DNA from: Methanobacteriota archaeon
GTDB taxonomy: Archaea; Halobacteriota; Bog-38; Methanoflorentales; Methanoflorentaceae
Length of the DNA stretch: 64,000 bases
Assembly (NCBI GenBank): GCA_963719035.1
Contig: CAVRAO010000006.1
Span: 128,001 to 192,000, forward strand
Direction of reading: 5' to 3'
Below, one piece after another: positions 16,104 to 58,137 of this stretch; the stretch's first letter is position 1, and each line of letters opens with the position of its first letter. The position numbers and the translations under genes are program-made. A model generated the notes under the pieces. That model was given only the letters and a program-made list of their open reading frames with translations. It made no database searches and was not told the origin of the DNA.

Positions 16104-16304
16104 ACGGGAAGCATCAGACCAACTTACATTAAAAGCGTATCAGCAGAGCTGCTCCGCGGACACGGCGAGATATTCAGCTCTGATTATGAAAAGAACAAGC
16201 TGCTCGTGTCGAAGTACACGAACATCGAAAGCAAGAATATTCGAAATCGGGTTGCCGGATATATTACGCATAGAGTAGAAATCGGCAACAGGAAAAAATC
16301 ATGA
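16104..16304 (+). CDS. rps17e: 30S ribosomal protein S17e (eS17) with ACG start codon; not in ORF track
   Basis: Frame reads (ACG)GSIRPTYIKSVSAELLRGHGEIFSSDYEKNKLLVSKYTNIESKNIRNRVAGYITHRVEIGNRKKS. GGAGGTG SD at 16092-16098; stop overlaps dapA start (ATGA). Confidence 0.93.
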   Translation, partial: TGSIRPTYIKSVSAELLRGHGEIFSSDYEKNKLLVSKYTNIESKNIRNRVAGYITHRVEIGNRKKS

Positions 16305-17176
16305 AATTCGAGGGCGTATATTGTGCTATGGTTACGCCATTTACGAACAAAGACGAAATCGACGTCGAAGGGATGCGTTCCAACATCGCATATCTTCAGA
16401 AGGAAGGCGTTGCAGGTTTGGTGCCTTGTGGTAGCACAGGCGAATCTTCCACGTTGACGTTCGATGAGCACAAGAAGCTAATTGATGTGACAGTTGACGC
16501 GGCAAGCGTTCCTGTAGTTGCTGGGACAGGATCCAACAGCACTTCAGAGGCAATTGAGCTGACACGCCACGCGCAAGATGCAGGCGCAGAAGCATCTCTA
16601 CAGATAGTCCCTTATTACAACAAACCGATGAAAAGCGGATTAATCAAACACTTTGGCGCTATCGCAGAAGCGTGCGATATTCCGCTCGTTTTATACAACA
16701 TTCCTGGTCGTACCGGGATTAATATGGATCCTGAAACGATCAGCACGCTTGCCCACGAGCACAACAACATAGCGGCGGTGAAAGAGGCAAGCGCGAACTT
16801 CAGCCAGATTTCAGACATTATAAAGCTTACCCAAGATCTCGATTTTTGCGTCATTTCAGGGGATGATGGACTCACCCTTCCTATGATGGCGCTAGGGGCT
16901 ACAGGGGTGATCTCTGTTACTGGAGATATCTTTCCGAAGCTGATGGGGCAACTAACACAGTTCTGCCTTGAAGGCAACTTTGAAAAAGCACGCGAGGTGC
17001 ATTATCGACTAGCCCCGCTTTTTAAAGCGCTCTTTATCGAGACAAATCCTATTCCAATCAAAAAAGCATGTGATTTGCTCGGACTTGCAGGCGGACCGCT
17101 CCGATTGCCCCTTACTTCGATGGCAGAACCCAACGTCGCGAAGCTCAAAGCGACGCTCGCGGCCTACAAAGACTGA
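16301..17176 (+). CDS. dapA: 4-hydroxy-tetrahydrodipicolinate synthase
   Basis: GSTGES, PYYNKP, LYNIPGRTG, VKEAS, ETNPIPIK. Confidence 0.97.
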   Translation: MKFEGVYCAMVTPFTNKDEIDVEGMRSNIAYLQKEGVAGLVPCGSTGESSTLTFDEHKKLIDVTVDAASVPVVAGTGSNSTSEAIELTRHAQDAGAEASLQIVPYYNKPMKSGLIKHFGAIAEACDIPLVLYNIPGRTGINMDPETISTLAHEHNNIAAVKEASANFSQISDIIKLTQDLDFCVISGDDGLTLPMMALGATGVISVTGDIFPKLMGQLTQFCLEGNFEKAREVHYRLAPLFKALFIETNPIPIKKACDLLGLAGGPLRLPLTSMAEPNVAKLKATLAAYKD

Positions 17177-17205
17177 GGGAAAACCGATTAGGATATGGTA
17201 GCTGT

Positions 17206-17937
17206 ATGACACCAAACGACAAGATAGCAGTTGCTGTGACCGGCGCTTGTGGCCGGATGGGACGGATGATTATCGACAACGTAACACAAGCGCCTGATAT
17301 GACACTCGTGGCCGCTTTTGACAAGCAGAGCTGTAACTCTGAGGTCATAGAAGCGTCAAAACTTGCTGAGACACTAAGAAGCGTAAGCCCCGACGTCTTG
17401 GTCGATTTCACCGTCGCTTCTTCATCGGTCGAAATCATCAAAACAGCCGCAAGCGCTGGAGTACGCCTCGTCGTCGGAACAACTGGATTCACTCCCGAAC
17501 AACGTGCAGAAGCGAAAAAGGTGATCGAAGGCCAAGTAGCAGCGATAATCTCCCCGAACTTTTCGATCGGCGTTAACGTGTTCTTTCAATTGGTTAAAAG
17601 TGCGTCAGAGAGTCTTCCAAGCGCAGCATACGCCGCTGAGCTCATTGAGGCACATCATAAACACAAAATCGATGCTCCGAGCGGGACGGCAGTGAAAGCA
17701 ATCGATATCATCAAAGAGGTCGATCGTTCGCGGTCGATAGGATCCTATTCTATACGCGCAGGGGATATCGTAGGCGATCATTCAGTGTTGTTCATCGGAG
17801 ATGGCGAACGGCTTGAGATTAGCCATCAGGCTCACAGCAGACAGGCATTTGCCAGCGGCGCGATGCTAGCTACTAGATTTATAGTGAAGCAGCCGCCGGG
17901 ATTATATTTAATGGATGATCTAATGGCTTCGATCTAA
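17206..17937 (+). CDS. dapB: 4-hydroxy-tetrahydrodipicolinate reductase
   Basis: GACGRMG, VGTTG, EAHHKHKIDAPSGTA, RAGDIVGDH. Confidence 0.97.
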   Translation: MTPNDKIAVAVTGACGRMGRMIIDNVTQAPDMTLVAAFDKQSCNSEVIEASKLAETLRSVSPDVLVDFTVASSSVEIIKTAASAGVRLVVGTTGFTPEQRAEAKKVIEGQVAAIISPNFSIGVNVFFQLVKSASESLPSAAYAAELIEAHHKHKIDAPSGTAVKAIDIIKEVDRSRSIGSYSIRAGDIVGDHSVLFIGDGERLEISHQAHSRQAFASGAMLATRFIVKQPPGLYLMDDLMASI

Positions 17938-18141
17938 GATCAGGTAGAGCAGCGACCAGCACACGTTTTTTAAGACTCAGCGGTTGACATTGTTTTACCA
18001 CACAGAGCTAGGCGCTTAGAAATTGTTGTCGTCTTCCCCAACTAAACGTGCGAGGAATGCGCATAGACTTTCTTTGCTGCGAGTAATGATCGGGGGTTCA
18101 AAAAAACGGCTGCAAGCATATAACAGGAAACTGTTTATCGT

Positions 18142-19719
18142 CTAAGAGGATTCTTGACCGTTATTTTTTAAGAAGTCAATGAATGTCGTCTCCATCGACG
18201 CGAGATTGCAGACTGGCATAACCCCGGGTCTCGGATTAATGTTCAGTGACTTTTGATACTTCGTTTGGCCTTGCCATGTCCCTGAGTTCACGACAGTGAC
18301 GCCTCGATATTGCGAAGCACCAATAGTATGAACGTGGCCGCTATGAAGGATGTCAGGTATCGTTTCAATAATGAAGTGATCTGTGCTCTCTGGCGCTATA
18401 GAGACCCTATTTCCATATACCGGTGAAAGATGCCGTCTTTTTAGCATTTCCTTCATCGCACCGTCAGGGTTGCTATATGATGAGCCAGGAACTGCCGCGA
18501 TTATATCGTCCAGAGCCCTGCCGTGATAGATGAGTATTTTGACGCCGCACAGTTCAATCAGCGAAGGATTGCCCACGCACGTGACGTTGTTACTGAAGCT
18601 TTTTGCATACTCATTTGAGAGGGCAGGCTGCGGCTCTGCTTGTCGAACTGCATCGTGGTTTCCCGGAGAAACAATGATAGAGAGCTCTGATGGCAACATG
18701 TCAATAAGGGAGGCGGCTTCCGCATATTGATCGTTGACGTCGTCAATGGCTAATTCCTCTTCTTGATTTGGAAAAACCCCAATGCCATCCACCACGTCGC
18801 CGGCCACGATAACGTAAGCCGTTTTGCGTGCTCTTTCATCATCGCTCGACGATATCCAATCAGCAAAATCCTTCCACGCGTTTATTAAGAACGTGTTACT
18901 ACCAACGTGAATATCAGAGGTGAGGGCCACGTATACGTCCGTCGCCGAGTATGTGGGTTGATTTTGCGGAGGGATCTCAGGCCACGTAATGCTATCAATA
19001 AAGATCACTTTTCCATCAGATGAGAGAGACCCGGTTATACCGATCACCTCGTCGTGTACCACTTGAAGGGCTGCGGTGTATGCGCTTTTATCTTTCAACG
19101 CAATTCCGCTGAAGTATCCGGTAGGGTCCTCCAACTCAATTACCCTGTGACCATTTGGTGTGTCGCGCATCTCATTTACCATGCCGACGATAGAGATTTT
19201 TCCGACTGTGGTAAACTCATCATCGAACAAAACCTCGCGTCTACGGTTGAATAACGTCAAGCTCTCGATTGGTCGAGTAGCAAGCCGCCTCTTTATGATT
19301 TCGCTGAGCCGGTCGTACCGATTTCTGAAGTATTGCACGAATTCTTCGTATGTACCTACACAATTGGAACTCTCGGTAATGTCCGCCAGAATTGTTATGG
19401 GCAGTGGTTGTCGTTGACGTAGCTGTGTTCCAACAGTGTGCGTTTCACTGAGTGGGCTCTCAACTATGATGTCCGAAATGTCCTCTTCGTTGTGATCGAA
19501 CAGAAGCATAGGCTTCACATTTTTTTTCCGTGAGTTCAGCGATTCTTTCGCCGCGGTGACGTTAGGGGGGGCAACAACTAGCACAGATTCATCAACGTTT
19601 CTCAACACCTCGTCAACTACTGCCAATGGCAGCTCGCTTTCCTGAATCATCACCACGGCTTCTTGGGTAACTAGAAAGCCGCTGTCAGAAAATTTCTCAA
19701 TTATGTCGGTTCGAATCAT
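18142..19719 (-). CDS. polB: DNA polymerase D small (proofreading) subunit DP1
   Basis: OB fold plus calcineurin-like motifs SDIHVGS, GDVVDG, PGNHD, YHG, GHVH; RRHLSP. Confidence 0.95.
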   Translation of the reverse strand: MIRTDIIEKFSDSGFLVTQEAVVMIQESELPLAVVDEVLRNVDESVLVVAPPNVTAAKESLNSRKKNVKPMLLFDHNEEDISDIIVESPLSETHTVGTQLRQRQPLPITILADITESSNCVGTYEEFVQYFRNRYDRLSEIIKRRLATRPIESLTLFNRRREVLFDDEFTTVGKISIVGMVNEMRDTPNGHRVIELEDPTGYFSGIALKDKSAYTAALQVVHDEVIGITGSLSSDGKVIFIDSITWPEIPPQNQPTYSATDVYVALTSDIHVGSNTFLINAWKDFADWISSSDDERARKTAYVIVAGDVVDGIGVFPNQEEELAIDDVNDQYAEAASLIDMLPSELSIIVSPGNHDAVRQAEPQPALSNEYAKSFSNNVTCVGNPSLIELCGVKILIYHGRALDDIIAAVPGSSYSNPDGAMKEMLKRRHLSPVYGNRVSIAPESTDHFIIETIPDILHSGHVHTIGASQYRGVTVVNSGTWQGQTKYQKSLNINPRPGVMPVCNLASMETTFIDFLKNNGQESS

Positions 19720-19948
19720 AACAGGTCATGACGGGGAACGCTTTCGATAAGATATAAGCCAAAACTGACCCGGCGAAATCCTCCTTTTCTCTTACTCATT
19801 AGCGAGAACCTGCACGCTTGAGCAACGAAGCGCTCGACACGGCTGCCGTGGATTCCCACCAGCGCGTCGGCAGGTTATATAAAGCGTCAATTGCAACTAT
19901 CATCACACATCAGCCAGCTTGGCACCGTTTTTACGCTTCCTGAAATAC

Positions 19949-20617
19949 ATGCAAGATCAAACCAGAGAACGCACGAAGAAATTCTGGGAGACTGACAATT
20001 ATTGGTTAGCGCTTCTGCGTGATATAATAGTTGCATTTCTCGTTGTAGCTGTGATCTTGTCGATAGTATATGTGTACTCAGGGTCTGAGAGCCCGCTGGT
20101 GGCTGTGCAGTCGGGAAGTATGGTGCCCAACATAAACATTGGCGACGTCGTGTATAATCGAGGGCTAAACAGAGTGCCAGTAGTCACTAACAAAGAAGGG
20201 AAAGCAACTAATCACCTGAGGTTCGGCGACTACGGTGATGTCATTGTCTATAGGCCGAATGGCGAACGCGTGAGGCCGAATGGAGAACCCGTGACGCCAA
20301 TCATACACCGAGCTATATACTGGGTAAACGCGGGAGACCGTCTTCCAAACAATCAAACGGCTGCTCACGCAGGATATATCACTAAGGGGGACCACAACCA
20401 AGACTATGATCAGCCGTTGCTCTATGGCGGATCACCATTCGTCGAACCAGTTAAGCCCGAGTGGATAATCGGTGTTGCACAAGAGCCTGCTATACCGTGG
20501 ATCGGAAATTTACGGCTCGCTCTCCCTACCGTTATCAACCCATTAATTACGATATCCGATGAATACAGGAATATCTCGGTTCCAGCTTGCACAACAGCTT
20601 CACTCTTTCCAGTTTGA
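19949..20617 (+). CDS. Signal peptidase I (S26, Sec11-type)
   Basis: TM helix, VQSGSMVP, GDVIVY, PIIHRA, TKGDHN. Confidence 0.92.
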   Translation: MQDQTRERTKKFWETDNYWLALLRDIIVAFLVVAVILSIVYVYSGSESPLVAVQSGSMVPNINIGDVVYNRGLNRVPVVTNKEGKATNHLRFGDYGDVIVYRPNGERVRPNGEPVTPIIHRAIYWVNAGDRLPNNQTAAHAGYITKGDHNQDYDQPLLYGGSPFVEPVKPEWIIGVAQEPAIPWIGNLRLALPTVINPLITISDEYRNISVPACTTASLFPV

Positions 20618-20726
20618 ACGCTTTGAGAGTCTGTGGAGGCTTCGTAGCGGGTTCAAAACTCGTTTCAACGGCTTTTTACGACAATTAGATACGCTTATAT
20701 GTGACGTTTCGACATAAGCTTTGACT

Positions 20727-21938
20727 ATGCCGCCATTTCTCACGATGGACGATCTCGATACACACGGACGAGTGGTCCTAGTTCGCGTCGACTTGAATTC
20801 ACCCATAGGACCCAACGGAGAGATTCTTGATGACATTCGTTTTCGCGGCCATATTCCGACCATTGAAGCCTTGAAAGATGCAAAGACGGTGCTCCTTGCC
20901 CACCAGTCCCGGCCTGGGAAGCGAGATTTCACAACTATGGAGCAGCACGGCGAAAAGCTCTCCTCACTTCTCGGAAAAGACGTTACGTATGTCGATGACA
21001 TTTATGGACATAACGTACGGCAATCAATACAAGAGATGGAAACGGGAGATATTACTCTCCTCGAAAACGTGCGTTTTAGTTCGGAAGAGATGCTCAAGGC
21101 CCCCGTTGAAGATCTCACTAAAACGCATCTTGTTACGCAGCTGTCTCTACTATGTGATGTCTTTCTTAATGACGCGTTTGCAACTGCACACCGCGCACAA
21201 ACTTCGATCGTCGCTTTTCCGCGAGCATTGACTTCAGGAGCGGGGAAGTTGATGGAGCGAGAGGTCGAAATGCTCACAAAGGCGCTGACAACTTCCCAGC
21301 GGCCGCGACTGTTCATGCTTGGGGGGACAAAAGCAGACGATAGTGTCAAAGTCATTGAGCACGTTCTCGCTAAAGGAAGCGCTGACAAAGTGCTTGTTAC
21401 GGGCCTCGTAGCGAATATATTTTTGGCTGCTGCCGGAGTTGATATCGGACCTCCAAGCCTCGATTACATCAAATCTTCTGGATACGGCAATTATGTCGAG
21501 ATTTGTAAGAGATTGCTCGATAGCTACGACGGTAAAATAGTAACGCCCCTTGACGTGGCTTTAAACGACGGCGGAAAACGTTTAGAGGCACCAATTTCAG
21601 CGTTACCAAAGGCTTATCCAATATATGATATCGGCATAGAAACAATTGTCGCGTATTCGGCAGAACTCAAAGCGGCAGGTACCGTTGTGATGAACGGCCC
21701 TGCCGGAGTGTTCGAACAAAAGGCGTTTGCGCTCGGAACCGATGAAACGTTGAAGGCCGCAGCTCAATCCAAATTCTCTATACTAGGCGGGGGCCACATC
21801 GCCGCCGCAGCACGAAACATTGGTATTGCCAAGCACATCACTCACGTATCAACCGGAGGGGGGGCGTGCATAGATTTCTTGGCTGGAGAGACCTTGCCCG
21901 GGATTCAAGCGCTCATTGAGGCGAGCGATTTCGAATGA
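20727..21938 (+). CDS. pgk: Phosphoglycerate kinase
   Basis: RVDLNSP, AHQSRPG, LLENVRF, DAFATAHR, STGGGA. Confidence 0.97.
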   Translation: MPPFLTMDDLDTHGRVVLVRVDLNSPIGPNGEILDDIRFRGHIPTIEALKDAKTVLLAHQSRPGKRDFTTMEQHGEKLSSLLGKDVTYVDDIYGHNVRQSIQEMETGDITLLENVRFSSEEMLKAPVEDLTKTHLVTQLSLLCDVFLNDAFATAHRAQTSIVAFPRALTSGAGKLMEREVEMLTKALTTSQRPRLFMLGGTKADDSVKVIEHVLAKGSADKVLVTGLVANIFLAAAGVDIGPPSLDYIKSSGYGNYVEICKRLLDSYDGKIVTPLDVALNDGGKRLEAPISALPKAYPIYDIGIETIVAYSAELKAAGTVVMNGPAGVFEQKAFALGTDETLKAAAQSKFSILGGGHIAAAARNIGIAKHITHVSTGGGACIDFLAGETLPGIQALIEASDFE

Positions 21939-22033
21939 GTACGTTAGCCGTCCCGTTTGTGAATCCAACGCCTTGTAGCTATACATTAAAAACGTATAAG
22001 TAGCGGCGGGCCTAAATAAAATCGCCTCAAAGC

Positions 22034-22169
22034 GCCTCGGTGGCTCAGCCTGGAAGAGCGATTGACTTGTAACTGTATGCGCAAAACGTTGCGCATCCAA
22101 ACGCTACTGGTACTCAAGATTGCGGAGCAAGTTATCAATAGGTCGGGGGTTCAAATCCCTCCCGGGGCT
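22034..22169 (+). tRNA. tRNA-Thr(TGT) with 62-nt intron (22072-22133) at position 37/38
   Basis: Acceptor GCCTCGG/CCGGGGC, anticodon stem ATTGA/TCAAT, TGT at 22068-70, GTTCAAATC T-loop. BHB motif: CTTG/CAAG helix with TAA and TTA bulges. T-tract follows. Confidence 0.93.
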
Positions 22170-22263
22170 TTTTTCCTTCACACAGCGGGTCTGCAGAAGT
22201 GAGGCGGTTCAGAGCAGATCCGTGTGAGTGTGCTGGATATGCAGAAATTCAGGTGATGCCAAA

Positions 22264-22911
22264 ATGATGTCCATAACTACGCTGACAGTCCCAGAGGGCT
22301 GGTATAAAGCAGTCAGACACATCATGGAATTTGGCAATGTGGTGGACACTGAGTACGAAGTCAAAGCGCGCCAGATCCTAATGGGGATGATCCAAATCGA
22401 CAAGCCCACCTTGGGTTGGCATAAAGGTGATACTTTTTGTTCGAAAGCCCGGGTAGAGGAGTATAAGAAACAGTTCGATCGCGCCTACTTACACCAACAC
22501 CACTTCGAATATACTTATTTAGAGCGACTCGTAGAGGGGCACGGAATTGATCAGTTAGCGTGGATGAAAGACCAGCTATTAAAGAAACGAGTCGGATCGA
22601 AGCGTATTCAGGCAATTACGTGGATCCCACAAATTGACTCTCAAAAGGACGAAGACCAACCGTGCTTTCAGAGAATGTGGGTTTACCTACACAGCAATGA
22701 GAGGCTTGACGTCCACATCATGTACCGAAGTTGGGACGTTTTCCAAGCATATGAAGCCAATATTAACGCGTTTCTTTCCCTAGTCAAAAAGGAGCTTTTG
22801 GAGCCTACAGGACTGAAGATGGGGACGTTATGCACGGTTGGCAACTCGATGCATATCTATGATTACAACTGGGATGAGGCTCAAAACCTCCTTGAGAAAT
22901 ATAAGAAATAG
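22264..22911 (+). CDS. thyA: Archaeal-type thymidylate synthase (ThyA-like)
   Basis: FEYTY.ER, catalytic PC (QPCFQ), YRSWD, ANI, SMHIY. Confidence 0.85.
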   Translation: MMSITTLTVPEGWYKAVRHIMEFGNVVDTEYEVKARQILMGMIQIDKPTLGWHKGDTFCSKARVEEYKKQFDRAYLHQHHFEYTYLERLVEGHGIDQLAWMKDQLLKKRVGSKRIQAITWIPQIDSQKDEDQPCFQRMWVYLHSNERLDVHIMYRSWDVFQAYEANINAFLSLVKKELLEPTGLKMGTLCTVGNSMHIYDYNWDEAQNLLEKYKK

Positions 22912-23323
22912 CGCTTTGTTGGTGACTCACGGGACAAATAAGACTGATCTCGGCTCAAGCGGGCTCTAAAGGGCAGTGACGGACGGGGCAGACACTCACA
23001 AACGCTCGGAGTCCAACTTGTTAGCTTCGGGACGTCTGTCACTAACGCTGTGTGGCGAGCGAAATCATTAAAAATTGAAAAAGTTCAAATTTTGTTTATC
23101 TAAACCGCTATCCTGTTGCTAAACAAGATAATATTATTATTAAAATAAAGTATTCTTCCGTTAAATTTAAACTCAGTTGTATTTTATACATATTTATAGC
23201 GATTAACTAAAATCGGGATATAGAGACCAGTTCCTTTTAAGTTGAATGAATCTGTAAACGCCAGTTAACAGATTGGCCCTCGCTATAACACAATTATTGA
23301 ACTGTAAGAACACGGAGTGAATC

Positions 23324-24598
23324 ATGACCCTAATTGATCGCGCAAAGCAAGGAATTATCAGTGACGAAATGATGACCGTCGCCTCTGATGAGGGCGTGAC
23401 GCCTGAATTTATCTGCCGCGGGATTGCGAACGGACAGATCGTAATTCCGATAAGTCCATACCGGGAGACCAAACCGATTGGAATAGGCAAAGGGCTTAGG
23501 ACCAAGGTTAACGCTTCGGTTGGCACCTCTTCAGACATCTTGGATGTCGATCTCGAAGTCGAAAAAACAAAGGTGGCTGAGGCTGCGGGAGCTGACTCCA
23601 TAATGGAGCTGTCCGCCGCTGGTGACTTTTACGAAATCAGAAGGAGGGTAATCGAAGCAACTTCCCTGTCCGTTGGGAGCGTTCCACTCTATCAAGCGTT
23701 TATTGAAGCTGCACGGCAGTCAGGCTCAATCGTTGATATGCGAGAGGATGATCTCTTCAGAGTGACTGAAGAGCAAGCGAAACTCGGTACCAACTTCATG
23801 GCGATTCACACCGGAATAAACTGGGTGACGCTCGACAGGCTGAAGGCTCAGGGACGGCACGCTGGCCTCTGTTCGAGAGGCGGAGCTCTAATGTCAGCGT
23901 GGATGGCTCACAACGAGCGAGAGAACCCACTGTACAGTGAATTTGACTACCTTCTTGAAATCCTCAAGCGACACGAAGTCACCCTTAGCATGGGAAATGG
24001 CATGCGAGCAGGCGCTGTGCATGATTCTACTGATAGGGCCCAGATTCAAGAGCTGGTAATTAATGCCGAGCTCTCTGACAAAGCACACGAATTTGGGGTG
24101 CAAACGATCGTTGAAGGCCCGGGACACATACCTGTTGATGAGATTCAAGCCAACGTGGTTCTGGAAAAGCGACTGACCGGGGACAAGCCCTTCTATATGC
24201 TCGGGCCGCTCGTAACTGACATAGCACCTGGTTATGACAACATAGTGGCCGCGATCGGAGCAGCGCTATCGTCTTCTTATGGCGCTGATTTCATCTGCTA
24301 TGTTACGCCGGCAGAGCACCTTGCCTTGCCGTATCCAGAGGACGTGCGCCTTGGGGTCATCTCTGCGCGCATCGCTGCTCATATCGGGGACATGGTAAAG
24401 CTTGGCAACAGGGACGACGACCTTAAAATGGCGCAAGCGCGCAACGAAATCGATTGGGCGAAACAGTTTAAAGTCGCAATCGACCCACAAGCTGCAGCGA
24501 ACATTCGTAAGGAACGAATGCCTTCAGATTCTAACACGTGTACCATGTGCGGCGAGTTCTGCGCCTACAAAATCGTCAAAGAGTACTTCGAACTATGA
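23324..24598 (+). CDS. thiC: ThiC-family radical SAM enzyme; motifs suggest the BzaF-like (5-hydroxybenzimidazole synthase) branch
   Basis: SRGG, EGPGH, YVTPAEHL, CTMCGEFC; but MELS, NASVGTSSD and GNGMRAG replace canonical MDLS and GDGLRPG. Confidence 0.88.
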   Translation: MTLIDRAKQGIISDEMMTVASDEGVTPEFICRGIANGQIVIPISPYRETKPIGIGKGLRTKVNASVGTSSDILDVDLEVEKTKVAEAAGADSIMELSAAGDFYEIRRRVIEATSLSVGSVPLYQAFIEAARQSGSIVDMREDDLFRVTEEQAKLGTNFMAIHTGINWVTLDRLKAQGRHAGLCSRGGALMSAWMAHNERENPLYSEFDYLLEILKRHEVTLSMGNGMRAGAVHDSTDRAQIQELVINAELSDKAHEFGVQTIVEGPGHIPVDEIQANVVLEKRLTGDKPFYMLGPLVTDIAPGYDNIVAAIGAALSSSYGADFICYVTPAEHLALPYPEDVRLGVISARIAAHIGDMVKLGNRDDDLKMAQARNEIDWAKQFKVAIDPQAAANIRKERMPSDSNTCTMCGEFCAYKIVKEYFEL

Positions 24599-24802
24599 TG
24601 GCGCGGCACGCCTTGCGATGTGCTAATATCGTGCTTGTCTCGTAGGATGCGGTTTATGATTATGAGGTGAGAGTGCGACAGGAGTTTGCACGTCCCTGAA
24701 CCACAAGCTTAGGCAAACTCGATATATCTTTTCGGACTTGTTACACTATATGTCAGAAACGTCATCATCCGTTCATCGCGCTTTTCTTTTGCAGCCAAGC
24801 TA

Positions 24803-25483: not shown

Positions 25484-25537
25484 AGTACCACTTTCATGGT
25501 GGCGGGACAACTCCGAAATACTTGAGCTTTCTCTCGT

Positions 25538-26512: not shown

Positions 26513-26610
26513 ACACCCACCCTCCCTTTCTTGTCGCAACCCTTGGAGAGTCGTACACGCTAATCACTTGTGCACTATAAAGGCTTTTGAGGAGTGCAGA
26601 GCGAAAGTGT

Positions 26611-29527: not shown

Positions 29528-29536
29528 GGAGGGGAC

Positions 29537-34176: not shown

Positions 34177-34193
34177 CACTCTAAGTTCGCGAT

Positions 34194-46072: not shown

Positions 46073-47263
46073 ATGACAATACTTGCATTTCAGCCTTTTT
46101 CTGGCGCTTCAGGGGATATGCTCGTCGGAAGTCTCATCGATCTTGGCGCCGACGCATCCGCCGTTCGAGAGAGCATGGAAGCTGCTGCCAACGTCGACGT
46201 TGAGATCTACGAGGTGAGCAAATCGGGCATACGTGCAACGCAAGTCACCATCGTCGCCGAGGCGGGGCCGCTTGCTTATCGAGAGCTTATGAACGTGCTT
46301 AAATCTTGCGAGCTCAGTCCACATATAGTCGCTGACGCGAGTGCGATATTTGAGATTATTGCGAACGCAGAAGCAGCCGTACATGGTGTTCAAAAAGAAG
46401 AGCTCGAGTTCCACAAAATAGGTGCTCGGGATGCCATTGCAGACGTAGTCGGTGCTTGCACGGCCATGTCACTTCTCAACGTTGACTCAATATTCACAAC
46501 CCCCATATTCGTTGGCGGTGGGTCGTTAGAGACCGATCACGGGCTTCTCCCGATCCCGGCTCCTGCAACTGCCGCAATACTAGCCAAATACCACTTGATA
46601 ACTCGTGGAGGGCCTGTGGAAGGAGAGCTGCTGACCCCAACGGGTGCAGCTATTCTCGCCTTTTTTACGGGAATTTCAGACGTTTTTTTGCCCCAAATGA
46701 CCATTGAACGCGTGGGTTATGGCGCAGGATTTCACGACTTTTCTCACCCAAACGTTCTGCGTGCTACGCTTGGTCAGAGCGATGAGGGTCTGCTTGAAGA
46801 TGATGTCCAAGTGCTCGAAACTAACGTGGACGACGTGACAGGAGAGGTGCTTGGAAATCTGGTCGAGGGGCTCCTCGAAATAGGCGCTCTGGACGTTGCA
46901 ATAGTGCCCACGACCGGGAAAAAAAGCAGAACCGGGCATCTTATCCAAGTGATAGCCCGCCCCGCCGACTCCAATAGATTGACAAAAAAGATAATCGAAG
47001 AAACGGGCAGTTTGGGCGTGCGGATCATGCCGACGCGTCACAGACTCATAGCTTTACGGCGCAGTGAAGCCGTAACGGTTCGTATCGGTAGCGAGTCCCA
47101 CACAATCAGCGTAAAAGTTGCCACAGATCAACACGGCACTGTACTAAACGTCGCTGCTGAGTTTGACGACGCTGCGAAACTTGCCAAAAGACTCGGCATC
47201 CCAGTCAAACACGTTATCAGGGTAGCTGAACAAGAGGCTTGGGCTCGACTTAACAGCAGTTAG
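46073..47263 (+). CDS. larC: Nickel-pincer cofactor biosynthesis protein LarC family (TIGR00299)
   Basis: [40 protein letters not shown]. Confidence 0.92.
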
Positions 47264-48021
47264 CACGTTTGATTCTGTTTTGTACGTTTATGCTCAGTTA
47301 ACGCCTCTGTAATCGTTATTTCACCTATCGCAACTCTTTTCGCAAGCTGTCTCGAGATCGTTGTTCGCCCTTCTGAGAGTTCCCTACTCCTCTCTTGAAT
47401 CCACCTTATCTCGCCCTTCGAAGGGAGGATCTCTTGGTGCCCCACGCGTACTCCTTGCGTGTACGCGATGTTTATAGCGGCGACTATGTCGGAGATCGCG
47501 GCCCCGCCCGTGCCCTTTCCGAGGTACGGAGAAGTCCCGCTTTCATCGACGAGTTCGACTGGTATCCCCTGGGCCACTAACGAGTTTGCTAAACGCATGC
47601 TCGCGAGGCGAGCCCCATGTCCAATTCGTACAAGTATGTCAGAATATGTCTGCTTGATTCTCTCTATTACGCCAACGGCCTGCCCCACGGGAACACGATA
47701 AACCGCTTCGACGATACCATTAGAGAGAACAGCAATACCAGGCTCTTCCCCCGGATCAATGCCGATAACGGCGCACCCACGAAAAGCGCCATTCCTAAGA
47801 AGTCTGATTGCTTCATTCACCGTCGTCTCAGGATCAGACGCCACTACAACGTTGGGAAAGGTGATCGCGCTCGCCTCCTCTTTAGAAGTTATCACGACGC
47901 CGATTTCACGCCCTATCGCGTCGCTTGGCGCAATAGTTACAAATTTAAGCCCCTTTTCGCGAAGCGTTTTGGTTATGTCCTGGAAAAGCGCGAAGTCCGT
48001 AGTTGCTAGGGCGATGTGAAT
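47260..48021 (-). CDS. Conserved euryarchaeal hypothetical protein (RNase H-like GIDPG motif); probable ATT start
   Basis: IGIDPGEEPGIAV, RIGHGA, VDESGTSP. Frame stays open 42 codons upstream of GTG 47895 to ATT 48019-48021, which follows a GGAGGGG SD. Confidence 0.75.
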   Translation of the reverse strand: MHIALATTDFALFQDITKTLREKGLKFVTIAPSDAIGREIGVVITSKEEASAITFPNVVVASDPETTVNEAIRLLRNGAFRGCAVIGIDPGEEPGIAVLSNGIVEAVYRVPVGQAVGVIERIKQTYSDILVRIGHGARLASMRLANSLVAQGIPVELVDESGTSPYLGKGTGGAAISDIVAAINIAYTQGVRVGHQEILPSKGEIRWIQERSRELSEGRTTISRQLAKRVAIGEITITEALTEHKRTKQNQTC

Positions 48022-48144
48022 TCTTGCCCCTCCACTCTGTAGTTGAGGGACGAACCTTTATAACCCTAACTCTCCATTAGGCTGTAGTTAACGACAATCG
48101 CGTCGTTTCTCTCTATCGGATTTGCTTTGAGGTTCTAAACACTG

Positions 48145-49622: not shown

Positions 49623-49631
49623 GTTAGATCC

Positions 49632-50912: not shown

Positions 50913-50913
50913 C

Positions 50914-52068
50914 TCAGACAACCTCCTCAAGCCGTCTTACTGCTTCTTTAATCGTATTAACAGGCACTGTTAATGCAAATCTAATGTAGCCCTCGCCATA
51001 TTCTCCAAAGCCAATGCCCGGCGTAGCAACAATTCCTGCGTCTAGCAGCTTCAGAGAGAAGTCCAGTGACGGACTTCCATCTGGGACTAAAGCCCAGACA
51101 TAAAACGTCGCCTTTGGCTTCTCGACGGACCAGCCGATGTTCCTCAGACCGTCAACTAGCGCATCCCTCCGTTCGACGTAGAGTTTTCTAAGGGCGTTGA
51201 CCGTGTCCTGTGGTCCCGTCAAGGCCATAATCCCGGCTTCCTGTACCGCTTGGAACGCGCCGGAGTCGAGGTTCGACTTGACCTTTTTGAGGCCCGCGAT
51301 GACATCAGCGTTCCCCACTGCAAAGCCCATTCGCCAGCCTGTCATGTTGAACGCTTTAGAGAGGCTGTTGATTTCAATTCCTACTTCCATCGCACCGGGG
51401 ACTGAAAGAAACGACGGCGCTGCATACCCATCAAACGTCAGCTCCATATAGGCGGCATCGTGACACACGATAACGTCGTTGTCTTGAGCATAGTCGACGA
51501 CCGTTCTAAAAAAGGCTTCGTCAGCAACAGCTGCAGTGGGGTTATTCGGATAGTTTATAAAGAGCAACTTAGCATCTGGTGCCGCTTTCTCTATGTCAGG
51601 CAAGAAACCATTGTCGGCAGTTAGCGGCATCGTTATCGGTTTACCGTCAGCTAAGATAGTTGCGATTTTGTAAACAGGATATGCAGGATCCGGAACGAGC
51701 ACTTTGTCCCCTTGATTGACGAAAGCTAAAGGCAGATGTGCGAGGCCTTCCTTTGACCCAATTAGCGCCAATACCTCGTTTGCCGGATCGAGGTCGATGC
51801 GTTTCTTCGCGTACCACTCGCCTACCGCTTCTCGATATGTCAGCATGCCCTCCGAGGAGGGGTACCGATGATTCGCTCCTTTATGCGCAGCGTGCACGAG
51901 TGAGTCGACGATATGAGCGGGCGTCGGCTGATCGGGATCGCCCACGCCTAGATCAATGATATCGATTCCCTGTGCCTCCTTTTCTGCCTTTCGCGCATCG
52001 ATTTGTGCGAAAAGGTACGGAGGCAGCACGTCGAGTCTCGTTGAATATTTACTGGTCGAGTTCGCCAT
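50914..52068 (-). CDS. dapL: LL-diaminopimelate aminotransferase
   Basis: PPYLF, GSKEG, NYPNNPT, SLSKAFNMTGWR; operon with lysA and dapF. Confidence 0.88.
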   Translation of the reverse strand: MANSTSKYSTRLDVLPPYLFAQIDARKAEKEAQGIDIIDLGVGDPDQPTPAHIVDSLVHAAHKGANHRYPSSEGMLTYREAVGEWYAKKRIDLDPANEVLALIGSKEGLAHLPLAFVNQGDKVLVPDPAYPVYKIATILADGKPITMPLTADNGFLPDIEKAAPDAKLLFINYPNNPTAAVADEAFFRTVVDYAQDNDVIVCHDAAYMELTFDGYAAPSFLSVPGAMEVGIEINSLSKAFNMTGWRMGFAVGNADVIAGLKKVKSNLDSGAFQAVQEAGIMALTGPQDTVNALRKLYVERRDALVDGLRNIGWSVEKPKATFYVWALVPDGSPSLDFSLKLLDAGIVATPGIGFGEYGEGYIRFALTVPVNTIKEAVRRLEEVV

Positions 52069-52312
52069 GTGTCTACCTTGTTGACAGCTGCAAGCCTGGT
52101 ACGCTCAAGCGCAGCTTTTTAAAACGCTGAAACATCTAAACAGCCTGCGAGAACTTATATTCGCTCATCTTTATTGAGGTTGCTTTTCGAATAAAGATTT
52201 ATTGGGGGCACTTATGTGCGAACCAAGATGTGCTCCCGTTCACTATGAGCTGCAAGCTAGTATGCAAACCTTTATTTTCTAGAAGATTTCCATATAGGCG
52301 AGAGCTGATATA

Positions 52313-52930
52313 ATGAATAATCGCAATCTAATTGTCACGCTAGCGGTTGTGGCGCTGTTAACAGTAGCAGCGACGACAGCGGGCTGCGCGACTAATACCA
52401 CTCCTTCGCCAACTCCGATCCCTGCGACGCAGACGACGGTTGGGAACAATACGACGTTTTCGAGCGGTGCGGGTTTCAACATCACGTATCCAAAAACTCT
52501 TAAGACAGACCAGTCTACGGATACAAAAACTCCCGTTAGAATCTACATCTATCTGGATCCAAAAGAGGTAATTGACGGTGTTCTAGTAGGGACAGAAGGC
52601 CTTACTGCCGGTCAAACGCTAAACGACTTCGCAAATGCCAAGGTATTTAATCTTAAGAATAGCAGCAACGCAGGGCTCTACAAGAATTTTACGCTCAACG
52701 AGACCAATTCAACATTTGCTGGAAAACCTGCGCGCACTGTCGTTTTTTCGGGAATTCTTCCCATCCAGTACAACAAGACAACGGCGAAAAACGTATCAGT
52801 TAAAGAGATGCAAACGTTCGTCGTCAATAATAATATAGGGTATGTTATAACGTACAAAACTGTTTCCAGCGACTACGACAAGTATCTAGCGCAAGCACAA
52901 CGAATAATGAACTCATTTGTGCTGACGTAG
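52313..52930 (+). CDS. PsbP/Mog1-like secreted lipoprotein
   Basis: Lipobox TTAGC, Thr/Pro linker, FNITYP, C-terminal QRIMNSFVL. Confidence 0.75.
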   Translation: MNNRNLIVTLAVVALLTVAATTAGCATNTTPSPTPIPATQTTVGNNTTFSSGAGFNITYPKTLKTDQSTDTKTPVRIYIYLDPKEVIDGVLVGTEGLTAGQTLNDFANAKVFNLKNSSNAGLYKNFTLNETNSTFAGKPARTVVFSGILPIQYNKTTAKNVSVKEMQTFVVNNNIGYVITYKTVSSDYDKYLAQAQRIMNSFVLT

Positions 52931-53433
52931 GCCCAATATTTTGCAGGGTAGCGAGCAATATTCTCTCTACCCTAACTTTTTCTCGCCCGGAGCACTTTCT
53001 TTGTCTAGCTAATACCAGGTTTCCAAAACTTAGCGCACGCGAAAACTTGTGAAATAAAACCCAGTTCTGGCTTTTTAAAAAAAAGCGATTGTAAGAAGCG
53101 CTGGCCGTCCAAACTGAACAGCCAGCTGACTTACTTGGTCGTATAGACCAATACTTACGTTATAAAACAGTTCCGATGTTATGCTGTGTTGTTTGATTTG
53201 GCCGGTCACCTCACAAGGTTTAGTTGATAATTCGTGCGCTTCAATCCTATTTGTATTTTTTCATTATTAATCGTGAATGATAGCGAACATCGACAAGACT
53301 TGAGCGGTTTAACGCGGGTATCGTTCTATATACTCATCAACCACTGCCAGTGGCAAAACCATTATCACACCAGGCATTTATCCTGCTTTCGAGGGAGTCG
53401 CCATTGAACTAACACATCAAACCTTACGTGCAC

Positions 53434-54045
53434 TCACAGCGTATCATCGAGATAATCATACGATAAGTGAGAATCCACTATCTGGGTCTTGCCACTAGCG
53501 AGGGCTTCTTTAGTCTTGCTAAAACCAGCGTCACGTATAAGCGTCGTACCATTTCCTATCTCAAAGGCTTGGTGCGCATCACTTGCCCCTATGATGGGCT
53601 TGCCATATTCACGAGCGAGTTGTTGCGCGAGAGCGTTGCTTGAGGCGCTCGTTTTTGAATTGAAACCCTCAATGAGATCAACTTGTGGAATCACGTCGCC
53701 GCTCAACAAGTTCTTGCCGAATCGGAACGGATGTGCCCACAAAACTAACCCTCCCTGCACCTTGATCTCCGTGATTACATCCGCCGTTTTTGTCGACTCA
53801 ATTTCTTCCTCTAAAAACAACCCTATTAGATCCGCTTTATCATCCGTTTCAACCTCGGAGCCGACGATTACCAAAAAATCAGGATCGTTATTTAGCTTGC
53901 GCGTTTCAATTCCGCCTTTGATTGTCAGGTGATCGCTAACTGCGATCCCGTCCAATCCCTTTTTCTTCGCGACTTTGAGAATAATTGCCGGTTCCATTGT
54001 ACAGTCACCGGAATATTTTGAGTGAATATGGAGGTCAAAAATCAA
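53434..54045 (-). CDS. PHP-domain metal-dependent phosphoesterase
   Basis: DLHIHS, VSDH, GSEV, AHP, ASDAH. Confidence 0.93.
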   Translation of the reverse strand: MIFDLHIHSKYSGDCTMEPAIILKVAKKKGLDGIAVSDHLTIKGGIETRKLNNDPDFLVIVGSEVETDDKADLIGLFLEEEIESTKTADVITEIKVQGGLVLWAHPFRFGKNLLSGDVIPQVDLIEGFNSKTSASSNALAQQLAREYGKPIIGASDAHQAFEIGNGTTLIRDAGFSKTKEALASGKTQIVDSHLSYDYLDDTL

Positions 54046-54532
54046 TTTTGTATTCTCCCAGACGGATTTTTTTGCACATTTTAGTCAAAGTAATTATACA
54101 ACTGACACATTTAAGCTGCAAACAAAAGGCGCTCAATGAGGAATTTGTAACTTTCGCCACCTCAGGTTACTACAACGGAAGGCCCATCTCAGGGAAATGC
54201 GGTTAAGACGAGGCCTCTTATATTTACAGAACGAAAATGTAAGTCGCATTTTGATGTCTGTCAATCCTCGGCGCCCGAATTCACCTCGCACTTTGATAGT
54301 CATCTTAACAAAGTTAAGTGGACATTTGTAAGCAGAGGATCAATTTAACTACCTTAGTTTTCTCTTTAATCGAAGTACTTTTAGCGCTGAGATGTCCTGA
54401 TTCCAACAACGCACAGCCGAAATTAGATAGAGTACGTGAAAAGTCGCTGCTATACTGACAAGATTCCCCTCGAATAATAAAGACGTGCGGAGTACCGATT
54501 AATATCGGACTACGCCTATAAGCGTGTAGCAC

Positions 54533-56713
54533 ATGGATTTAAAGGACTTGCCCGAAACAATTACCCATTTTTATCCTCATCCCGGCTTCACGGAACTCTA
54601 TCCACCTCAAGCTGAAGCGATAGCATGTGGACTGCTCGACGGTGCAAGCTTAGTTGTCGCTACGCCTACTGCCTCTGGAAAGACGCTATTGGCAGAGTTT
54701 GCCATGCTCAATTCGATTTATCAAGGCGGCAAGTGCCTCTACATCGTGCCGCTAAAGGCGCTAGCTTCAGAAAAGTTCGACAGGTTTTCGCTATTTGCCG
54801 CGTTTGGCGTCAAAATAGGCATCTCAACTGGAGACTATGACGTTCGTGACGACAAACTTGGGCATAATGATATTATCGTGACGACTTCAGAAAAGGCGGA
54901 TTCACTGCTACGAAATGGCGTGGAGTGGATGCGTACGTTGGGCGTTATCGTGGCTGACGAAATCCATCTGCTGGACTCTATGGATCGGGGTCCAACGCTT
55001 GAAGTAACGCTCACTAAGCTCAAAAAACTGAACCCCCTTGCCCAGATACTCGCCCTCAGCGCTACCGTTTCTAACGCAGATGACATCGCGCATTGGCTTA
55101 GCGCGCAACTCGTCCGAAGCGACTGGCGACCTGTGGCGCTGCACGAAGGTCTCTACCTTGTAGAAAGTGCTACCATCACGTTTGTGCAAGATACGCTTCA
55201 ACGAAGTACCTCGAAAAAAGCCATTTCCGATGGTTCGGCCGACCCCCCTATTGCACTAGCGATCGACACCATTGCTGACGGTGGGCAATGTCTGGTCTTC
55301 GTTAACACGCGGAGAAACGCCGAAAGCCTCGCAAAGAAAATGGCGTCCGCGATGAAATCGCTACGGCATGATTGCGCGGAGTTAGCAGCAAAGATCCACG
55401 GAGATACCGCAATAGAGGAAAAACTCAAGTATTGCGTGCAGAACTCGGTCGCATTCCATCACGCGGGGCTTTCAAGCGATGATCGTAAACTCGTCGAGGC
55501 AGGGTTCCGAGAGAACTGCATAAAGGTCATTGTCGCTACCCCCACGCTGGCATCAGGACTAAACCTTCCCGCCCGAAGAGTGATTATTAGAGACTACAAA
55601 CGTTATGATGCAAACTATGGCATGACGAATATCCCTGTGCTCGAATATAAGCAGATGGCAGGACGCGCAGGAAGGCCTGGATTCGATTCTTACGGGGAGG
55701 CAATACTCATAGCAAAATCACCAAACGAGTGTGAGGCGCTTGCAGAGCACTATATTCTGAACGAGGCAGAAGACGTCATATCTAAGCTCGGCACAGAGAC
55801 CGCCTTACGCGTGCACGTGCTCTCGACCATTTCTAATGGTTTCGCACGCACAAGAGATGAGCTCGAACGATTTTTTGGTGCAACGTTCTTTGGATTTCAG
55901 CAGCAGAGTTCACTGAACCTCACTTCATACGTCATCGACAGCGTATTAGCGTTTTTAGCGCATGAGGAGATGATAGTCGACTTCGGAGGACATATCAAAG
56001 CCACCTCATTTGGACACCTCGTATCCAAGCTATATATTGACCCACTGTCCGCCGTGAAGATCAGACGAGGACTTGAAAATGCTGAGAGCGCCTCTGACGT
56101 TGCGCTTCTTCAGCTCATTTGCTCAACCCCGGACGTTAAGCGTCTGTATATGCGTAACAGAGACTATCATTCGGTGACTGAATTTGTCAATAAGCACATT
56201 GACGAGTTCTTGGTCGAAATTCCTGATCGGTTTAGAGACGTCGATTATGAGTGGTTCCTTTCTGAGGTTAAAACAGCCATGCTCGTTCACGATTGGATCA
56301 ATGAGGTAAGTGAAAAAGAGATTACTGAGAACTACAACGTCGGGCCGGGAGACATTAGAAATCTCGTAGACACCGTGCAGTGGATAAGTCACGCGCTCGC
56401 GGAACTCGCCGCCTACCTCAAAGTGCCTTCAAAGAGACAGGCACGGGAGCTTACCGAACGCGTCCAGTTTGGTATAAATCGCGAGCTCCTTGATCTCGTA
56501 CAGTTGAAAAACATCGGCCGCGTGCGTGGCCGAAAGCTCTTCGATGCCGGTTTCTCAAGCCGTAAAGATGTCAAAAATGCTGCGTTTGAGGCGATCGCAA
56601 CACTTCTTGGTCCAGCAATAGCCGCAGATGTCTTTGAACAACTTGGATCCGCTCAAAAATTGGCAAAAGGAAAAGATCAACCCGCAGAACAACGATTTTT
56701 CAAGAGCGACTGA
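54533..56713 (+). CDS. hel308: Ski2-like SF2 DNA helicase Hel308/Hjm
   Basis: PTASGKT, DEIH, LSAT, FHHAGL, QMAGRAGRP, GRVRGRKL. Confidence 0.96.
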   Translation: MDLKDLPETITHFYPHPGFTELYPPQAEAIACGLLDGASLVVATPTASGKTLLAEFAMLNSIYQGGKCLYIVPLKALASEKFDRFSLFAAFGVKIGISTGDYDVRDDKLGHNDIIVTTSEKADSLLRNGVEWMRTLGVIVADEIHLLDSMDRGPTLEVTLTKLKKLNPLAQILALSATVSNADDIAHWLSAQLVRSDWRPVALHEGLYLVESATITFVQDTLQRSTSKKAISDGSADPPIALAIDTIADGGQCLVFVNTRRNAESLAKKMASAMKSLRHDCAELAAKIHGDTAIEEKLKYCVQNSVAFHHAGLSSDDRKLVEAGFRENCIKVIVATPTLASGLNLPARRVIIRDYKRYDANYGMTNIPVLEYKQMAGRAGRPGFDSYGEAILIAKSPNECEALAEHYILNEAEDVISKLGTETALRVHVLSTISNGFARTRDELERFFGATFFGFQQQSSLNLTSYVIDSVLAFLAHEEMIVDFGGHIKATSFGHLVSKLYIDPLSAVKIRRGLENAESASDVALLQLICSTPDVKRLYMRNRDYHSVTEFVNKHIDEFLVEIPDRFRDVDYEWFLSEVKTAMLVHDWINEVSEKEITENYNVGPGDIRNLVDTVQWISHALAELAAYLKVPSKRQARELTERVQFGINRELLDLVQLKNIGRVRGRKLFDAGFSSRKDVKNAAFEAIATLLGPAIAADVFEQLGSAQKLAKGKDQPAEQRFFKSD

Positions 56714-56721
56714 AGCAAACC

Positions 56722-57237
56722 ATGCGTTATGAAATTCTTGCCGGAAAAGCAACAATTGAAAGCGTTGAGGCGTTTTTACACGATATTGATGCAATTGCAC
56801 GGTCAAGCAACGCGGCGATTCAAGCTGTTGACGCCTCAAAAGTTGCAGATAGGCAGCATGTTGAAGATGCTGTGCGTCAGTCACTCAGGTCTTTTGCAGA
56901 TGGGCGCAACATCGCTACGAACCTCGGTGTTGAGATCCTCCTTCACCTAAGTGCTTGCCGACAAATTCAAAAAGCGCTCAATTTCGGCCTTCAAAAAGGA
57001 GAGAGAGACGTTTTGTTCATTATCGTAGGCACGAAGACGGCAATTGAAAGAAGTGCTCAGAAACTTAACCAATTGATAGTCGTCGATCCTCGCGTGATCG
57101 ATTATCGTGAGGCAAAACGCGAGGCATTGATGCAGACGTTCAACATCACGGAAGAAGAAGTCAGAGCCGTTGGGGGGTTCCACAGAATTCCGGAATTGGT
57201 GCGTGAGCGACTCGCGCTATTTGACGCGTTCAAATAA
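56722..57237 (+). CDS. cgi121: KEOPS complex subunit Cgi121
   Basis: EILL.LS..RQI.KAL.FG and LVRERLAL; adjacent to hel308. Confidence 0.9.
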   Translation: MRYEILAGKATIESVEAFLHDIDAIARSSNAAIQAVDASKVADRQHVEDAVRQSLRSFADGRNIATNLGVEILLHLSACRQIQKALNFGLQKGERDVLFIIVGTKTAIERSAQKLNQLIVVDPRVIDYREAKREALMQTFNITEEEVRAVGGFHRIPELVRERLALFDAFK

Positions 57238-57435
57238 CTAATAACCTTTTCGAGAGAACCAATGCTATTTTACGACAATGTGAAGCAATACACATAATTA
57301 GTCTTTGATGAGAAAAAGCGGCGCGCTGCTGAGCCACGATATTTGCGCAAACAATCATAACACAAAACTTAAGATTGAAAAGCAAAGCCTCACTCGTATG
57401 CGGCTTTACTCTGCAAACGCGAATCGTGGATTCTG

Positions 57436-58137
57436 ATGAAAACGGTAGTTGCTGTACTCATTCCGACGCTCAATGAAGAGGCCACCATCAGCCGTGTAAT
57501 TGATAGAGTTCCTGTTCACGCGCTCTCGAACGACGGATACGACACCGCCATCTACGTTATCGATGGAAGATCAGAAGATAGGACACAGCAGAAGGCACTC
57601 GAAAAAGGCGCAGAGGTGTTGCTCGTTACGCAGCCAGGAAAAGGTGCGGCAGTGCAACATGCATTTTCATCAATTAGCGCAGATTTCTTCATTATGATCG
57701 ACGGAGATGATACCTATCCCCCCGAGCGAATTACGGATTTCGTGCACCTTCTGCGTACGTATGACGTTGTAATCGGCTCCCGTCTAATCGGCCGTATCGA
57801 GGACGGAGCTATGACGCGAACAAACCTGTTTGGCAATCGTATACTCACGGTCTTAGCACGCGCGCTTTTCAAAAAAGAGATAACTGACGTGTGTTCCGGA
57901 TTCTGGGGCTATCGCAAACACGTCATTGATCGCATGGATCTTAATGCACGCGGATTTGAGATCGAAGCAGATATGTTTGTCGAATGCGCGCGTCTTCGCT
58001 TTAGCATAGGAGAGGTCGCGATTGATTATAAAAAACGGGTCGATCGACCAAAGTTGAGTTCGATCAGCGATGGACTTAAGATAAGTTTTTTTTTGATAAC
58101 GCGATGGGTGACTCTTGATCGGGGGGGAGGGCCGTAA
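57436..58137 (+). CDS. GT2 dolichol-phosphate glycosyltransferase-like protein
   Basis: IPTLNE, IDGRSED.T, GKG, IDGDDTY, GFEIEA. Confidence 0.92.
   Translation: MKTVVAVLIPTLNEEATISRVIDRVPVHALSNDGYDTAIYVIDGRSEDRTQQKALEKGAEVLLVTQPGKGAAVQHAFSSISADFFIMIDGDDTYPPERITDFVHLLRTYDVVIGSRLIGRIEDGAMTRTNLFGNRILTVLARALFKKEITDVCSGFWGYRKHVIDRMDLNARGFEIEADMFVECARLRFSIGEVAIDYKKRVDRPKLSSISDGLKISFFLITRWVTLDRGGGP

Follow-up and report, generated by a model that had tools for sequence, protein, structure and literature searches.

In bacteria, the gene infC, encoding initiation factor IF3, starts at AUU and is autoregulated by IF3, and in eukaryotes eIF1 and eIF5 autoregulate through poor start-site context. A role in start fidelity has been described for IF3 (PMC4705826), and on Shine-Dalgarno (SD)-led mRNA of Sulfolobus solfataricus the archaeal factor aIF1 discriminates AUG from AUU (Hasenohrl et al. 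2009, as cited in PMC4705826 and PMC8211752); discrimination against AUU is ascribed in PMC4705826 to aIF1 and not to aIF1A. In Methanosarcina mazei, CTG starts have been predicted from Ribo-seq for ∼5% of unannotated small open reading frames (ORFs) (PMC11456600). Comparable starts are described here for three genes in a 64 kb stretch (the window; contig CAVRAO010000006.1, positions 128,001 to 192,000) of the genome of a Methanoflorentaceae archaeon (GCA_963719035.1; hereafter G000), encoding ribosomal protein S17e (rps17e, ACG), a conserved 253-amino-acid (253-aa) protein (ATT) and a GT4 glycosyltransferase (GTA). Comparison with relatives supports, with a probability of about 0.7, the reading of all three as genuine near-cognate starts that are gene-specific, SD-driven and evolutionarily maintained, affecting ∼1% of genes with no general loosening of initiation.

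As with infC, a near-cognate codon stands behind an SD in particular genes, is conserved over long distances and varies among near-cognates without reversion to AUG, and one gene of the G000 set, that of aIF1A, itself encodes an initiation factor. The systems differ in that the present one is archaeal, with aIF1, aIF1A and aIF2 instead of IF3, that aIF1A is the homologue of bacterial IF1 and not of IF3, that the other genes encode S17e, the RFC small subunit (RFC-S), GT4 and an uncharacterised protein, and that feedback here would be conjectural; what appears new is the occurrence of infC-like near-cognate starts in other genes and another lineage. The Sulfolobus work, in which the archaeal 30S subunit binds AUU mRNA via the SD and aIF1 sets the stringency, provides the mechanism assumed here, although it was performed in vitro with model mRNAs, whereas the near-cognates of G000 are natural gene starts, predicted from sequence and kept by evolution. 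M. mazei belongs to the same phylum and CTG was counted as usable there, but the ORFs concerned are small, novel and software-called rather than conserved housekeeping genes, and ACG or ATH starts are not reported in the portion of that article considered here (PMC11456600). The literature searched, which excluded subscription journals and supplements, yielded no account of archaeal S17e, aIF1A or RFC-S genes with near-cognate starts kept by evolution, nor of such starts being held throughout a family with ATG almost absent.

Orthologues were recovered from as many as 23 further genomes of the family, which cover two genera, and from 17 genomes belonging to 12 other families of the phylum, the start codon being the codon aligned to position 1, read locus by locus; ATG, GTG and TTG are termed canonical and anything else near-cognate, and the family counts for the three window genes cover 21 genomes for S17e, 22 for the 253-aa gene and 19 readable ones for GT4. 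Genome-wide, G000 was compared with G017, a complete genome of the same genus, over 1693 best-conserved ORF pairs, in whose gene bodies substitutions fall 21/13/66% on codon positions 1/2/3.

The clearest case is rps17e (16104..16304, plus strand; 66 codons plus TGA; Pfam Ribosomal_S17e), which starts at ACG (16104-16106) in the context ...CGGAGGTGGTTTC ACG GGA AGC ATC..., behind the SD GGAGGTGGT (16092..16100, plus strand), which is conserved in relatives and has its GGAGG 7 nt from the ACG. An in-frame TAA is located 10 codons upstream with no ATG, GTG or TTG between, and the first canonical codon downstream is a GTG 34 codons into the 66-codon gene. Residues 2-58 align to positions 2-58 of the Ribosomal_S17e profile, and the ACG therefore occupies the place of Met1. 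The start is non-canonical in 21 of 21 family genomes (ACG 12, ATA 7, CTG 1, ATC 1) and canonical in all nine genomes of other families in which it was read (ATG 8, GTG 1), while a pattern scan for the N-terminal coding sequence in public metagenome contigs recovered a non-canonical start in 52 of 53 (ACG 31, ATA 16, ATC 3, CTG 2, ATG 1), in 27 distinct contexts. Between G000 and G017, substitutions upstream of the first canonical codon number 5/3/12 on positions 1/2/3. Within the family this codon has changed between ACG, ATA, ATC and CTG with ATG nearly absent, suggesting tolerance of, or preference for, the weak codon; the shortest route from ATA to ACG passes via ATG or ACA.

The 253-aa protein (47260..48021, minus strand) belongs to no known family, with no Pfam or NCBIfam matches, and its gene starts at ATT (48021-48019) in the context ...TGGAGGGGCAAGA ATT CAC ATC GCC.... 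The SD GGAGGGG (48027..48033, minus strand; predicted duplex −9.8 kcal/mol) is spaced 7 nt from the ATT and is of GGAGG type in most relatives; ∼35 nt upstream of the ATT lies a TTATAAA box (48057..48063, minus strand), likely the TATA box of the promoter, which is kept as TTATAAA or TTATTAA at family loci. A TAA precedes the ATT by 13 codons with no canonical codon between, and the next canonical codon is a GTG at +42. Non-canonical starts have been read in 22 of 22 family genomes (ATC 11, ATT 10, ATA 1), a count that leaves out one further genome with a frameshifted copy; outgroup starts are ambiguous and were not counted. Over the first 45 aligned codons, substitutions between G000 and G017 are distributed 4/4/16 on positions 1/2/3. 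The protein is kept at 42-48% identity in distant members of the phylum, Haloferax records included, and represents a widespread uncharacterised archaeal protein.

The third gene encodes the GT4 glycosyltransferase (58134..59285, plus strand; 383 codons; Pfam Glycos_transf_1 and Glyco_transf_4), with the start GTA at 58134-58136 in the context ...GGGGGGGAGGGCC GTA AGA ATC GCT TAC GTG ATG... and a G-rich SD, GGGGGGGAGGG (58121..58131, plus strand; −10.6 kcal/mol). A TGA lies 6 codons upstream of the GTA with no canonical codon between, and a GTG and an ATG follow 5-6 codons downstream. Among the 19 readable family genomes the start is non-canonical in 17 (ATA 15, ATC 1, GTA 1, against ATG 2); GTA is unique to G000, relatives having mostly ATA, while the GT4 paralogues and the outgroups start at ATG. 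The residues I-K/R-I-A-Y-V are preserved across genera with synonymous changes in every codon. Spacing also differs, the GGAGG of G000 lying 3 nt from the GTA and the GGGAGG or GGGGG of relatives 8 nt from the ATA. Immediately upstream is a GT2 gene (57436..58137, plus strand; Pfam Glycos_transf_2), whose TAA stop (58135-58137) overlaps the GT4 start as GTAA; this overlap, which is missing from a preliminary description of the window made from its sequence alone, recurs as a 4-nt overlap at 17 of 19 family loci (ATAA 14, GTAA 1 in G000, ATGA 2). Homologue searches with GT4 gave two matches on contig C4 of G000 with the same scores as two on contig C2 (C2:773304-775655, C4:18746-21181), and C4 may duplicate part of C2, as a repeat or through assembly redundancy.

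That description had pointed to a near-cognate codon, an in-frame upstream stop and an SD at all three genes, had judged three errors falling on start codons unlikely, and had called for sister genomes to be compared; the first holds for each gene, with no canonical codon between the stop and the N-terminus, and the family counts of 21/21, 22/22 and 17/19 agree with the second and make the trait lineage-wide for these genes. In the affected genes the codon seems to move among near-cognates across the family and almost never to settle on ATG.

Initiation at these codons is evidently SD-driven, as the preliminary description had proposed. The 3′ end of the 16S rRNA of G000 is GGATCACCTCCT, and for all 13 near-cognate starts identified in the genome the predicted SD/anti-SD duplex is −9.0 kcal/mol or stronger, the strongest being that of rps17e (−17.1 kcal/mol); the seven found without an SD criterion are all at −9.8 kcal/mol or stronger. 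Among canonical genes (n = 1334), 32% reach −8 and 19% reach −10 kcal/mol by a measure generous to them in that each was given its best candidate start, so that the duplex strength of the near-cognate set is reached by roughly a quarter to a third of canonical genes. A strong SD, with GGAGG ∼7-8 nt upstream, would dock the 30S subunit, and the ordinary initiator tRNA (CAU) would match ACG, ATH or CTG at two of their three bases; at GT4, ribosomes ending GT2 would probably re-initiate at the overlapping ATAA or GTAA. We infer that initiation takes place exactly at these codons with Met-tRNAi and, by analogy with infC, that the weak codon may have been selected to tune expression.

Searching G000 with Aragorn identified one initiator-type tRNA with anticodon CAU, an A1:U72 pair and three G:C pairs (GGG/CCC) beside the anticodon loop, which we take to be the marks of an initiator tRNA. 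The genome also encodes aIF1, with a SUI1 domain (81.5 bits), from a gene that starts at ATG. Judged from the initiator tRNA and from the presence and start of aIF1, the initiation machinery looks ordinary, and the altered factors to which the preliminary description had attributed a general relaxation find no support in these components.

Across the genome, case-by-case inspection of the 1693 gene pairs identified ∼13 well-supported near-cognate starts (∼0.8%), a lower bound from one genome pair. In addition to S17e, the 253-aa protein and GT4, the set in G000 comprises aIF1A (CTG), RFC-S (ATA), a leuA/cimA-like synthase (ATC), an MptD-like aldolase (PF04038; ATA), a TrkA-N/DHH protein of 488 aa (ATT), a 352-aa protein (ATA), an ATP-grasp protein of 387 aa (CTG), a 357-aa protein (CTG), a 101-aa protein (ACG) and a second GT4-like protein of 262 aa (ATA); for the MptD-like gene and the 488-, 352-, 387-, 357-, 101- and 262-aa candidates, start codons were compared in G000 and G017 only. 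The ATT, ATC, ATA and CTG used here are exactly the alternative starts of those forms in NCBI table 11, to which prokaryote annotation seldom resorts, and ACG and GTA stand outside its start list. Substitutions upstream of the first canonical start are distributed on positions 1/2/3 as 0/0/7 in the MptD-like gene, 0/0/7 in the leuA/cimA-like gene, 1/2/6 in RFC-S and 2/1/5 in aIF1A. From a small third-position excess in short extensions, near-cognate starts are estimated to total at most a few dozen.

Other measures of frequency proved unsuitable. When protein alignments extending past the first canonical start on its 5′ side were taken as evidence, 571 of 1917 pairs were flagged, most of which proved to be conserved 5′ leaders or shadow ORFs. 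In total, the substitutions in stretches of this kind on positions 1/2/3 are 167/160/177 for those of 6-9 codons and 237/185/181 for those of 10-19 codons, a uniformity indicating that most conserved upstream stretches are non-coding leaders. Codons behind SD motifs counted in G000 alone gave no clear near-cognate excess, the count being too noisy and dominated by neighbours of true starts. Among 5′ ends with an SD of at least five matched bases conserved in both genomes, 162 are canonical-start sites and 52 lack a canonical start. On inspection, many candidates from these orphan sites turned out to be canonical starts at a longer spacing, promoters under conservation, a tRNA gene or shadow ORFs, and were discarded.

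Turnover at conserved-SD starts is likewise limited. Starts canonical in both G000 and G017 number 175, of which 146 are unchanged (ATG/ATG 112, GTG/GTG 22, TTG/TTG 12) and 29 are swaps (ATG-GTG 16, GTG-TTG 12, ATG-TTG 1), against three real switches to or from near-cognates (ATG/ATT, GTG/ACG, ATG/ACG), showing that near-cognate starts still arise or revert within the genus. The three switches (ORFs at C8, minus strand, 51921; C8, plus strand, 202949; and C12, plus strand, 302123) are canonical in G000 and near-cognate in G017 at the same SD-led position. Neither a large share of genes on near-cognates (∼13 of 1693 pairs, a two-genome lower bound) nor free turnover between canonical and near-cognate codons among close relatives (3 switches against 29 canonical swaps between two genomes of one genus) was therefore found; of the lineage-wide relaxed initiation earlier suggested for this DNA, the lineage-wide part stands for these genes and the general weakening does not.

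Three of the genes outside the window extend beyond the family. The aIF1A gene (C12:180370-180651, plus strand) has a CTG start 7 nt after GAGGTG, which is CTG in 19 of 19 family orthologues and in three paralogues, with a stop just 4 codons upstream in most; among eight genomes of other families the start is CTG in 4-5, TTG in two and ATG in one, with CTG in at least three other families. The gene for RFC-S (C2:378638-379603, minus strand) starts at ATA (8) or ATC (11) in 19 of 19 readable family loci and, among nine genomes of other families, clearly at ATA or ATT in two, from two families, ambiguously in one and at ATG in six, with two genera of one other family differing (ATA versus ATG). 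The leuA/cimA-like gene (C6:17186-18199, plus strand) has no canonical start for 23 codons and a near-cognate start in 15 of 15 family loci (ATC 13, ATT 2); its motif RTGAGGG-ATY, also present in six other-family loci, is conserved as RTGAGGG-ATY-nnn-TTA across at least six families, with an in-frame TGA two codons before the ATY. The G000 copy of the leuA/cimA-like gene is open for 339 aa as against 494 in relatives, suggesting a frameshift or assembly error near its 3′ end. The capacity for near-cognate starts is thus not special to the lineage of G000; the S17e, 253-aa and GT4 cases are.

The chief alternative is lineage-wide relaxed discrimination, in which ribosomes bound at an SD could use any near-cognate through a change in aIF1, aIF2 or the initiator tRNA, with such codons drifting in freely. 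An essential protein, S17e, is made from ACG, ATA, CTG or ATC throughout the 21 family genomes and from ATG or GTG in other families, two species within a genus differ by three recent canonical/near-cognate switches, the affected genes number 13 or more, above the handful known from Escherichia coli, and aIF1A, a start-site factor itself, is made from CTG; all of this would follow from relaxation. Yet merely ∼0.8% of the compared genes are affected, regions upstream of first canonical starts evolve as non-coding sequence, conserved-SD starts remain canonical in both genomes with the 29:3 ratio of swaps given above, and the near-cognate state is conserved at the affected genes without drift to ATG; G000 has an ordinary initiator tRNA as well as aIF1, and the aIF1A-CTG, RFC-S ATA/ATT and leuA-like ATY starts occur in other families too, so that no special change in this lineage is needed. 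We consider general relaxation unlikely. Initiation at the next downstream canonical codon, with upstream conservation reflecting a non-coding leader or regulatory RNA, would accord with the non-coding character of most conserved stretches upstream of canonical starts in G000 and G017 and, at GT4, with a GTG/ATG merely 5-6 codons beyond a very poor start codon, but would cost S17e 34 of its 66 residues, including Pfam positions 2-34, and the 253-aa protein 42 residues; in these regions substitutions fall preferentially on third positions, the encoded residues persist between genera under synonymous change, and the SD spacing fits the near-cognate codon rather than the downstream one, making this reading very unlikely.

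Recoding, either by RNA editing of ACG or ATA to AUG or by an out-of-frame canonical start followed by a frameshift, finds its best example in the leuA/cimA-like gene, where several families share a GTG/ATG in another frame that overlaps the in-frame TGA (RTGAGGGATY), the SD-like GGAAGTGA is spaced for that RTG, and a model with an early +1 frameshift competes with a near-cognate start. Second-codon changes in this gene are, however, conservative in the main frame (A/V/I/F) and not in the other (R/C/Y/L), indicating that the main frame is read from the ATY onward, and no canonical codon in another frame lies at SD distance in S17e, the 253-aa gene or aIF1A. A single editing activity cannot convert ACG, ATA, ATC, ATT and CTG all to AUG, and contigs from two RNA libraries, derived from a ∼90%-identical relative, show ATA and not ATG at the rps17e start, with the proviso that they could stem from DNA present in the library; recoding is accordingly judged highly improbable. 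Errors of sequencing or assembly at the start codons would be suspected most readily for the GTA of GT4, which is unique to G000 and comes from a single assembly, but the same positions are non-canonical in 19-22 separately assembled genomes per gene and in the 52 metagenome contigs, and contig X2 from a DNA run is identical (0 differences) to window positions 16022-16324, across the S17e start, the independence of that run from the assembly being uncertain. The error reading is refuted for S17e and the 253-aa gene, and its overall probability is negligible.

Several observations weigh against genuine, gene-specific near-cognate initiation itself, the case for which rests on sequence comparison. 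ATG does occur at the near-cognate sites, in two of the 19 GT4 loci and one of the 53 rps17e contigs, and one rps17e variant, seen in a metagenome contig and a public protein call, has a TTG immediately upstream of the ACG. The GTA of GT4, found in G000 only, is two mismatches from AUG and is possibly a recent, poorly working mutation, and GT4 may instead start at the GTG or ATG 5-6 codons downstream. Near-cognates are not enriched at the orphan conserved-SD 5′ sites, where their frequency (13 of 52) equals that of a gene-interior control (325 of 1235), and with no statistical excess the genome-wide list rests on case-by-case judgement. The independent changes are few, and selection for a weak codon is inseparable from neutral drift among working codons. 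Initiation at ACG is very inefficient in E. coli and hard to reconcile with an essential ribosomal protein; S17e on ACG may point to weaker discrimination in the lineage than in model organisms, and because of this puzzle a modest probability is kept for reduced discrimination.

The conservation of CTG at aIF1A is the most interesting lead, in that an initiation-factor gene on a conserved near-cognate, the trait typified by infC, is found in all 19 orthologues and three paralogues, as a possible archaeal counterpart of the infC-AUU feedback. The eukaryotic eIF1/eIF5 circuits offer a further possible analogy, in that a fidelity factor made from a weak start could exert negative feedback on stringency, although their weakness lies in the Kozak context of an AUG reached by scanning and that of aIF1A in a CUG or UUG behind an SD. 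A stringency circuit might be envisaged in which the level of aIF1A (CUG/UUG start in many families), together with aIF1, would set the acceptance of near-cognates by SD-bound ribosomes, with a small regulon (S17e, RFC-S, leuA/cimA-like, MptD-like and cell-surface glycosyltransferases) following it and, in this family, an extension to a ribosomal protein; the proposal, built on analogy, is tentative and unlikely. The use of non-AUG starts by a ribosomal protein, a clamp-loader subunit and an initiation factor through the history of the family suggests that start-codon strength is regulated in archaea, for which no circuit was found described in the searched literature.

Practical consequences for annotation have also been observed, in keeping with the expectation that gene callers would miss or truncate such genes. 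Callers limited to ATG, GTG and TTG either cut them short or carry them on through the SD: for S17e, whose true length is 66 aa, public calls in the family vary between 44 and 105 aa, with NCBI entries for ATA-type relatives opening with MGSIRP at the ATA (65-66 aa), a relative of the ACG type called by NCBI as MRPTYIK (63 aa), three residues late, and others running through the SD (67-105 aa) or cut to 44-51 aa. Estimates of completeness may draw on S17e as one of their marker genes; four genomes of the family that consist of a single contig (G010, G017, G018 and G022) are rated only 87-91% complete, a value to which mis-called markers such as S17e could contribute.

Two further loci of G000 were recorded. 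On the minus strand of contig C2 (strand coordinates 576355-576901), an in-frame TAA is followed at once by a DUF72-like N-terminal region, KNWYNSTPDDFVF, of an ORF; the nucleotide sequence upstream is conserved and is offset by one base in G017, and the gene may be frameshifted or interrupted. Within the window, at 22034-22169 (plus strand), an Rfam tRNA match spanning 136 bases, absent from the ARAGORN output, is probably an intron-containing tRNA gene.

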